DNA of 64,000 nucleotides from a virus (Duplodnaviria > Caudoviricetes). The notes beneath the pieces were generated by a model. It had not been told where the DNA came from. It did no database searches and was given only the letters and a program-made list of their open reading frames with translations. The stretch lies in the IMG/VR virus record IMGVR_UViG_3300008255_000098; one strand, written 5' to 3'. Numbering within the stretch: position 1 is the stretch's first letter; the number at the start of each line of letters is the position of its first letter. The position numbers and the translations under genes are program-made. Of this stretch, positions 30,143-30,220 are shown piece after piece.

Positions 30143-30220
30143 GGGGCCTTGGCAGAAAACTGGAAATGCGGTTGACTTTAAATCGACTTTATGCGGGTTC
30201 AATCCCCGCAGGCCCTACCA
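30143..30220 (+). tRNA. tRNA with TTA anticodon (ochre-suppressor type)
   Basis: GTTGA-CTTTAAA-TCGAC; intact cloverleaf; A73; CCA. Confidence 0.82.

Follow-up and report, generated by a model that had tools for sequence, protein, structure and literature searches.

Why should a phage that ends its genes with TAA more often than with any other stop codon encode a transfer RNA (tRNA) that is expected to read UAA? The question is raised by a 64,000-nucleotide stretch of DNA, hereafter the window, from the Caudoviricetes record IMGVR_UViG_3300008255_000098; the complete genome measures at least 200 kb. On its plus strand, at positions 30143-30220, lies a tRNA gene with an encoded CCA and the anticodon UUA, here called tRNA(UUA). 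Such an anticodon is expected to read UAA and, via wobble, UAG. Upstream of it are a short leader, a conserved small gene (hyp159) and a gene for a PTH2-like peptidyl-tRNA hydrolase. We consider it probable that tRNA(UUA) is a selected ochre suppressor, which would act in trans to unlock a translational switch heading its own gene cluster.

The identity of the tRNA is clear from two programs and from direct reading. ARAGORN called a tRNA-Stop (tta) at exactly 30143-30220(+), and the Rfam tRNA model (RF00005) matched the same interval with 52.6 bits (gathering score 29) over model positions 1-71. The acceptor stem has 7 bp, including a G1-U72 pair, and is followed by U8; the D arm has 3 bp plus G13-A22 and a long, class-II-like D loop with G18G19; the anticodon arm consists of a 5-bp stem and the 7-nucleotide loop C-U-UUA-A-A; the variable loop has 5 nucleotides, the T arm is canonical, and A73 precedes the CCA. 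The gene has the hallmarks of a canonical elongator tRNA (cloverleaf, G18G19, U33, a purine at position 37 and a TTC T loop), with the ochre anticodon 5'-UUA-3' inside a 7-nucleotide loop. An earlier note on this DNA, made from its letters alone, had described a clean cloverleaf with encoded CCA and the loop CT-TTA-AA, a class II-like D arm next to a short variable loop, and a tRNA standing alone outside both tRNA clusters. All of these observations hold, the two clusters being approximately 17 kb and 26 kb away according to ARAGORN, one of two programs that the note had suggested running.

The same note had warned that the A at anticodon position 36 might be a sequencing error or a peculiarity of this genome. 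Neither is the case. The PTH2-like protein and tRNA(UUA) occur together in three independently assembled samples, represented by contigs of a Logan assembly, a JGI metagenome and an ENA assembly; the flanks there differ from the window by two to three single-nucleotide polymorphisms while the tRNA is letter-identical, which refutes an error. Contigs from four aquifer or groundwater runs likewise show zero differences in tRNA(UUA) or in the leader. Conservation in relatives, also proposed as a check, extends further: the same tRNA lineage is found 3' of the PTH2-like gene in two distant phages (loci L010/L024 and L011/L012/L026), whose PTH2-like proteins are 51-55% identical to that of the window. 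Across the three sequences of the lineage, 98% of the stem cells of the alignment are paired and compensatory changes affect 6 of the 20 pairs, and UUA never varies, so that A36 is not unique to the window. The discriminator base varies among the three members (A, U and G), and no single synthetase identity set is therefore conserved.

Could the gene nevertheless be an inert relic, that is, a sense tRNA (Lys, Tyr, Leu or Gln) with a recent anticodon mutation, adjacent to the leader by coincidence? The variable discriminator would fit such a history, but the invariance of UUA in three divergent phages whose stems change compensatorily speaks against it, as does the covariation of leader stop and anticodon described below. 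No close sense parent was found either: a single-step parent, as in supG, supC and supB, is missing among the tRNAs of the window, which are at best 65-67% identical; a blastn search against phage records returned no tRNA similar to tRNA(UUA); and the D-arm pattern is absent from GTDB genomes, and in IMG/VR occurs only on the L011/L012 contigs, both with UUA. We regard a relic as most improbable. A Leu-like D arm, a Gln-like weak 1-72 pair and a Lys-like loop were considered as clues to ancestry or amino-acid identity and were set aside as mere resemblances. Taken together, the comparison of sequences supports an intact UAA-reading tRNA under selection. We presume that it is charged.

Leader stop codons and suppressor anticodons

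The candidate client of this tRNA is a leader mini-open reading frame (mini-ORF) in the 155-nucleotide gap before hyp159, 1.1 kb upstream of tRNA(UUA). It comprises six codons, MSKEFL (29021-29041, plus strand), and its in-frame TAA (29039-29041) is the proposed client codon, as judged from the sequence and from homologous leaders. Read-through would add the extension VLN-RGPP-FELGK... (29042-29122, plus strand) up to a second TAA (29120-29122), which directly abuts the Shine-Dalgarno (SD) sequence of hyp159 (29123-29128; start codon at 29135). The motif Arg-Gly-Pro-Pro (RGPP), at 29051-29062, thus lies three codons past the leader TAA and 72 nucleotides before the hyp159 start. It occurs only once in all six frames of the window, and neither RGPP nor RAPP is present in the predicted window proteins.

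In order to place this arrangement in a comparative frame, we used a profile of five PTH2-like proteins, which retrieved 45 loci from IMG/VR and metagenomes; an alignment was needed as query, as the PTH2 and Macro-domain proteins used singly against IMG/VR gave no close relatives. At 12 or more distinct loci, a homologous leader of the form M-x-H-F-[W/L]-stop lies 540-585 nucleotides before the PTH2-like gene; the consensus is M-x-H-F-[W/L]-stop-I-x-x-R-G-P-P. When 199 kb of non-redundant loci were scanned for the pattern 'stop, 3-6 codons, R[GAD]PP', 13 occurrences lay at 450-585 nucleotides before the PTH2-like gene; the rest of that strand and the complementary strand contributed one each, and a shuffled set contained about 1.2. 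No start codon lies between the leader stop and RGPP. Importantly, all differences between loci in the RGPP codons are synonymous (CGU/CGA/CGC/AGA, GGA/GGU/GGC and CCU/CCA/CCC), which indicates that the frame after the stop is translated.

Of 32 non-redundant loci, 25 have a suppressor tRNA, called by ARAGORN, no more than 4 kb from the PTH2-like gene; four of the seven loci lacking one are short or truncated contigs. Wherever both elements are known (15 of 15 loci), the leader stop matches the anticodon of the adjacent suppressor. TAA is paired with UUA in four loci (the window, L022, L010 and L011), TAG with CUA in eight (L013, L029, L030, L034, L014, L043, L039 and L016) and TGA with UCA in two (L049 and L036), and in one locus (L031; also L032 and L033) the four-base codon UAGA is paired with a UCUA tRNA that has an 8-nucleotide loop. 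Within a second tRNA lineage, the anticodon is UUA in two loci with a TAA leader and CUA in four with a TAG leader. Leader stop and anticodon each require at least four changes when mapped on a tree of 19 PTH2-like proteins, and these changes always coincide.

The four-base case is the most striking of these pairings. In L031-L033 the zero frame past TAG contains no Pro-Pro motif, and reading UAGA as a single codon leads to YASAA-RAPP. The L031 leader is MNSLF-UAGA-YASAA-RAPP (L031:1066-1120), and the tRNA right after its PTH2-like gene (L031:1988-2061) has the loop C-U-UCUA-A-U, an exact complement of UAGA. The sister locus L028 carries the leader MEAYS-UAGA-YNP-RGPP (3474-3520), with no tRNA within 4 kb.

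From the synonymous-only variation of the RGPP codons and the covariation of stop and anticodon, we infer that tRNA(UUA) inserts an amino acid at UAA. A separate observation concerns L022, where a 297-residue protein (L022:2784-3677) consists only of the catalytic domain of a Glu/Gln-tRNA synthetase (PF00749, 2.5e-59); its gene sits between the PTH2-like gene and tRNA(UUA), and the protein might charge or modify the suppressor.

Arrest motif, predicted Shine-Dalgarno masking and the proposed switch

Of the arrest cores described, RAPP and RGPP stand out as the most versatile and robust; they act in several peptide contexts, are refractory to EF-P and are avoided in proteomes, while small upstream ORFs use them to regulate diverse downstream genes (PMC12992588, PMC10951233). 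The window leader possesses an R-[A/G]-P-P core in a small upstream ORF. It has no N-terminal signal or membrane segment: the chain at the motif would be the 13 residues MSKEFL-X-VLNRGP, with no hydrophobic segment. Arrest of this chain at RGPP would be expected from the motif.

A further property of arrest leaders, a stalled ribosome that overlaps a structure masking the ribosome-binding site, was predicted computationally by folding the region between the leader stop and the start codon that follows it. In the minimum free energy (MFE) fold of the window, an anti-SD segment made of the Pro-Pro codons and the next codon, CCUCCUUUU (29057-29065, plus strand), pairs with AAAAGGAG, the SD region of hyp159 (29121-29128, plus strand), so that the latter is predicted to be masked. 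Here 10.2 of 13 SD nucleotides are paired with the ribosome-covered segment, versus 2.2 in shuffles. The helix between the Pro-Pro segment and the SD is present in the MFE fold of 13 of 16 loci, and in L022 and L023 the pairing partners shift and change together (UUAUCUCCA with UGGAGAUAA). Counting only partners that a ribosome halted on the Pro codons would cover, the 15 loci together have 119.6 paired SD nucleotides; the shuffles gave 33.3 +/- 10.4, with a maximum of 65.

These elements suggest the following switch. Translation of MSKEFL (from 29021) would reach the UAA, where release factors would normally terminate and the SD of hyp159 and the PTH2-like gene would stay in its hairpin with CCUCCUUUU. 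If the UUA tRNA decoded the UAA instead, the ribosome would continue three codons onto Arg-Gly-Pro-Pro and stall there while covering the anti-SD segment; the SD would be freed, and hyp159 and the PTH2-like hydrolase would be translated. Expression of the hydrolase operon would then track suppressor activity, read-through presumably turning the operon on. As to its purpose, we favour, with low confidence, an adjustment of peptidyl-tRNA clean-up, or of the capacity for ribosome rescue, to how much read-through occurs; alternatively, the switch may sense whether tRNAs are intact or charged, or how active the release factors are.

The last possibility can be framed as a distinct explanation, in which the tRNA-leader pair is a sentinel that reports tRNA cleavage by host anticodon nucleases, amino-acid charging or release-factor activity. 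The operon would then react to a fall or rise in read-through, and the presence of the tRNA as such would not be the signal. Such a closed loop would be easiest to understand if a signal were carried by the tRNA; in addition, an RNA ligase and many tRNAs are encoded, as in phages that face tRNA-targeting defences, and the anticodon loop is one base from that of tRNA-Lys. The existence of CUA, UCA and UCUA modules, however, argues against mimicry of one nuclease target, and no defence gene or nuclease link was seen. The idea is entirely inferential, and we consider it quite unlikely.

Several points weigh against the switch as we propose it. Three loci with ample flank and either the leader or the PTH2-like gene (L028, L035 and L045) have no suppressor tRNA nearby. 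The association of stop and anticodon is perfect, but the independent events are few: the PTH2 tree is poorly resolved, and because only one to three pairs are phylogenetically independent, a sign test is not significant. The known RAPP/RGPP arrest peptides are longer than the 13 residues here and usually carry localisation signals (PMC12992588). Pro-Pro codons are inherently anti-SD-like, and part of the pairing signal is accordingly not independent of the motif. The screen for other clients, described below, covered the 64 kb of the window, the genome measuring at least 200 kb, and the public runs that contain the locus are DNA metagenomes only, with no RNA run listed. Finally, a loop in which the sole client controls the tRNA's own operon needs a further input or purpose.

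Ordinary stop codons and neighbouring genes

If the suppressor had ordinary clients, they should be visible among the genes of the phage. The window belongs to a large, T4-like phage with 39 tRNAs (ARAGORN), a transfer-messenger RNA (tmRNA), NAMPT, an RNA ligase and DNA methylases. Its closest catalogued relative is LR756508.1, an unannotated 484-kb uncultured phage (RNA ligase 44% identical), in which the UUA-loop pattern matches no more often than a control. The 67 plus-strand ORFs of at least 100 residues end in TAA (34), TAG (14) or TGA (19), TAA being the commonest stop. Global recoding was considered and rejected, as taking TAA, TAG or TGA as sense fails to lengthen the long ORFs; this agrees with the earlier note, which had seen TAA as the main stop and no global recoding. 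The features of a stop-reassigned genome, namely interrupted genes and a coding density that reassignment restores, are not found within the window.

A local or stage-specific recoding would require genes beyond the window to carry in-frame TAA codons read by tRNA(UUA). Such genes would have room outside the 64 kb, suppressor tRNAs are a known feature of recoded phages, and some distant PTH2 loci have no intact standard-code ORF, but the window itself bears no recoding signal and uses TAA as its commonest stop, and we hold this explanation to be very unlikely. The distant loci in question (L017, L018, L021, L047 and L053) each have a PTH2-like match without an intact standard-code ORF and a CUA tRNA near it; these phages may have recoded TAG, and the suppressor may then serve clients throughout the genome.

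Junctions between ORFs in the same frame of the plus strand involve TAA eight times, TAG eight times and TGA four times, with no excess of TAA. The TAA-joined ORFs, which include two triple sets (20014-20916 and 38597-39421), were considered as read-through fusions and rejected: at every TAA junction tested, Pfam and PHROGs show complete, unrelated domains on either side, which indicates neighbouring genes. Two same-frame pairs may be mentioned in passing, a chagasin-family peptidase inhibitor (PF09394) followed by a GroES-like co-chaperonin (PF00166) at 38813-39421, and a DEDDh exonuclease followed by a ClpP-like protease at 50102-51403. Within the 64-kb window, no conserved C-terminal extension, split gene or domain spanning a TAA was found; conserved in-frame extensions were what the earlier note had advised looking for.

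These results bear on the possibility that tRNA(UUA) is a general read-through agent, which would suppress many UAA stops of host or phage genes at a low level and so extend proteins or disturb host translation, the leader being only a gauge that tunes clean-up to the damage. With TAA at the end of half of the long ORFs (34 of 67), many codons would be exposed, and a tmRNA and the PTH2-like gene, both suited to clearing the by-products of read-through, lie within 3.5 kb. Against this, no domain of the window crosses a TAA, the junctions show no preference for it, and the authors of the XacN1 study found nothing beyond the amber stops of annotated genes; the covariation of stop and anticodon is tight, extends to the four-base codon and indicates that the leader is the client under selection. 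We consider a general agent unlikely, although it is the most credible of the alternatives. The earlier note had proposed timed read-through, for host disruption or for C-terminal extension of chosen phage proteins, or else a decoy. Regulated read-through is indeed the likeliest function, whereas no C-terminal extension was found in the window, nothing points to host disruption and nothing supports a passive decoy.

Of the two genes between leader and tRNA, the first, hyp159 (29135-29614, plus strand), encodes a conserved small protein whose homologues always precede the PTH2-like gene; its position is conserved and its sequence fast-evolving. An AlphaFold model (predicted local distance difference test score 82.9) shows a long helical hairpin and a small domain. 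There was no match in Pfam or PHROGs, nor in the PDB by Foldseek at E <= 0.001; VIA-align gave Z scores of at most 6.8, to generic helical hairpins, and the ESM Atlas was uninformative. The PTH2-like gene (29602-29952, plus strand) overlaps the end of hyp159 by 13 nucleotides and matches PF01981 at 5e-9 (36.8 bits, cut-off 23), passing the curated threshold, which bears out the Pth-like neighbour of the earlier note. The match to archaeal Pth2 structures is distant and weak (E 1.5e-4), and the enzyme appears to be a distant relative of archaeal Pth2.

Between this gene and the tRNA lies a structured non-coding spacer of 190 nucleotides (29953-30142, plus strand), recognised by its folding, which is better than that of shuffles (z -2.7), and by its conservation in relatives. 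Homologous spacers with T-arm-like hairpins are found at L008:10418-10540, L009:729-948, L010:3616-3877 and L011:4331-4588; those of L010 and L011, of about 260 nucleotides, end in a T arm and an acceptor-like GGCCACCA, resembling the 3' end of a tRNA or tmRNA. Neither in the window nor in L009 or L010 does the RNA match an Rfam family. The earlier note had placed a 6S-like RNA beside the tRNA, but a permissive Rfam scan of 28000-32500 gave no match to the 6S covariance models up to E = 1. The spacer is probably the 5' part of the tRNA precursor transcript.

A phage tmRNA (26719-27081, plus strand; RF00023, 106.4 bits) was found by Rfam without an ARAGORN call. The leader follows 2.1 kb downstream of it, and syntenic copies are present in L008 (7125-7458) and at the beginning of L010; Pfam found nothing in the ORFs at 27045-27365 and 27208-27414. 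Ribosome-rescue genes thus cluster around the leader and tRNA(UUA). As for the other tRNAs, the 39 in the window cover 18 amino acids, tRNA-Tyr and tRNA-Cys not being among them. Six of the ARAGORN tRNAs (5658, 7965, 11145, 56566, 56743 and 57294; some of 80-90 nucleotides) are below the Rfam gathering score, and a weak tRNA at 56143-56215 (33.4 bits) was seen by Rfam only.

Cultured phages and known systems

The PTH2-like family is also present in cultured phages, namely approximately 206 cluster C mycobacteriophages, two Xanthomonas phages and two Tenacibaculum phages. In Bxz1 (L055), the 'tRNA-OTHER' at NC_004687.1 95436-95509 is a tRNA(CUA) according to ARAGORN, about 300 nucleotides after the PTH2-like gp154, and a mini-ORF M-F-TAG precedes gp153. 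In Myrna (L056), the annotated tRNA-Ser at NC_011273.1 33522-33593 is likewise called tRNA(CUA), about 130 nucleotides after gp84. In XacN1 (L063), the PTH2-like domain forms the C-terminal half of ORF364 (AP018399.1, approximately 243735-244595), and an SD-equipped ATG seven codons upstream of the annotated start is followed by an in-frame TAG at codon 3. The authors of the XacN1 genome could not identify the targets of its two CUA suppressors (PMC5852040). This in-frame TAG in ORF364, in a phage with two target-less CUA tRNAs, agrees with a prediction of the switch model. In Atu_ph07, the PTH2-like profile found no match.

XacN1 (two CUA tRNAs) and Atu_ph07 (UCA) are the known cases of orphan suppressors (PMC5852040, PMC6102473). 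Like the window phage, they are large, use the standard code, and have many tRNAs and a peptidyl-tRNA hydrolase gene, and no ordinary gene needs the suppressor; whereas those papers report no target, the window has a conserved candidate. With the RAPP/RGPP leaders (ApdA, ApdP, ApcA, SecM and CruR; PMC7897499, PMC10951233, PMC12992588), the window leader shares a small upstream ORF with an Arg-Gly/Ala-Pro-Pro core, a structure at the ribosome-binding site that a stalled ribosome could open, and a motif avoided in ordinary proteins. In contrast to them, its motif lies beyond an in-frame stop, and the ribosome would get there only by suppression; the peptide is very short, lacking a signal or membrane segment; a dedicated tRNA would be the trigger, not secretion force or a metal; and the regulated genes would be the PTH2-like hydrolase and hyp159.

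The laboratory ochre suppressors of E. coli (tRNA-Lys, -Tyr and -Gln) likewise carry a UUA anticodon in an otherwise normal elongator tRNA. tRNA(UUA) differs from them in not being a one-step mutant of an identifiable sense tRNA, and in belonging to a conserved phage lineage with a class-II-like D arm, a short variable loop and one cis-element. Stop-recoded phages (TAG or TGA; crAss-like and Lak phages; PMC9523058, PMC6784885) also use a phage suppressor tRNA to control which genes are translated, but unlike them the window has no genome-wide in-frame stops, and a single regulatory codon stands where they have hundreds of coding ones. Synthetic amber-leader switches and engineered UAGA tRNAs (PMC6412442, PMC4764823, PMC8481270) share the use of stop or UAGA suppression as an input to expression; unlike these man-made devices, the window system appears natural and includes its own tRNA. 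In full-text literature searches, a natural leader switch gated by a suppressor tRNA was not described, only synthetic analogues, nor were natural UAGA-decoding phage tRNAs. Phage suppressor tRNAs, RxPP arrest leaders and SD masking are known kinds of element; their combination is not.

Beyond the window, a broader proposal can be made with a little less than even confidence: large phages may share a modular, portable nonsense-suppression switch in which a dedicated suppressor (UUA, CUA, UCA or UCUA) would unlock an arrest leader controlling a PTH2-like operon. Suppressor tRNAs of standard-code phages have been reported for years without a target, and the present locus supplies a concrete, conserved client and a mechanism assembled from known biochemistry (RGPP arrest and SD masking), which makes the question directly testable. 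If the proposal is correct, it would give a function to the orphan suppressors of standard-code jumbo phages, including those of Bxz1, Myrna and XacN1, and the UAGA leaders with their UCUA tRNAs would be the first natural, selected case of quadruplet decoding paired with its own client codon, and a natural orthogonal codon-tRNA pair for genetic-code engineering. A private tRNA competing with release factors would be a new input to leader-peptide regulation, and in these phages it would link read-through to peptidyl-tRNA hydrolysis and ribosome rescue.
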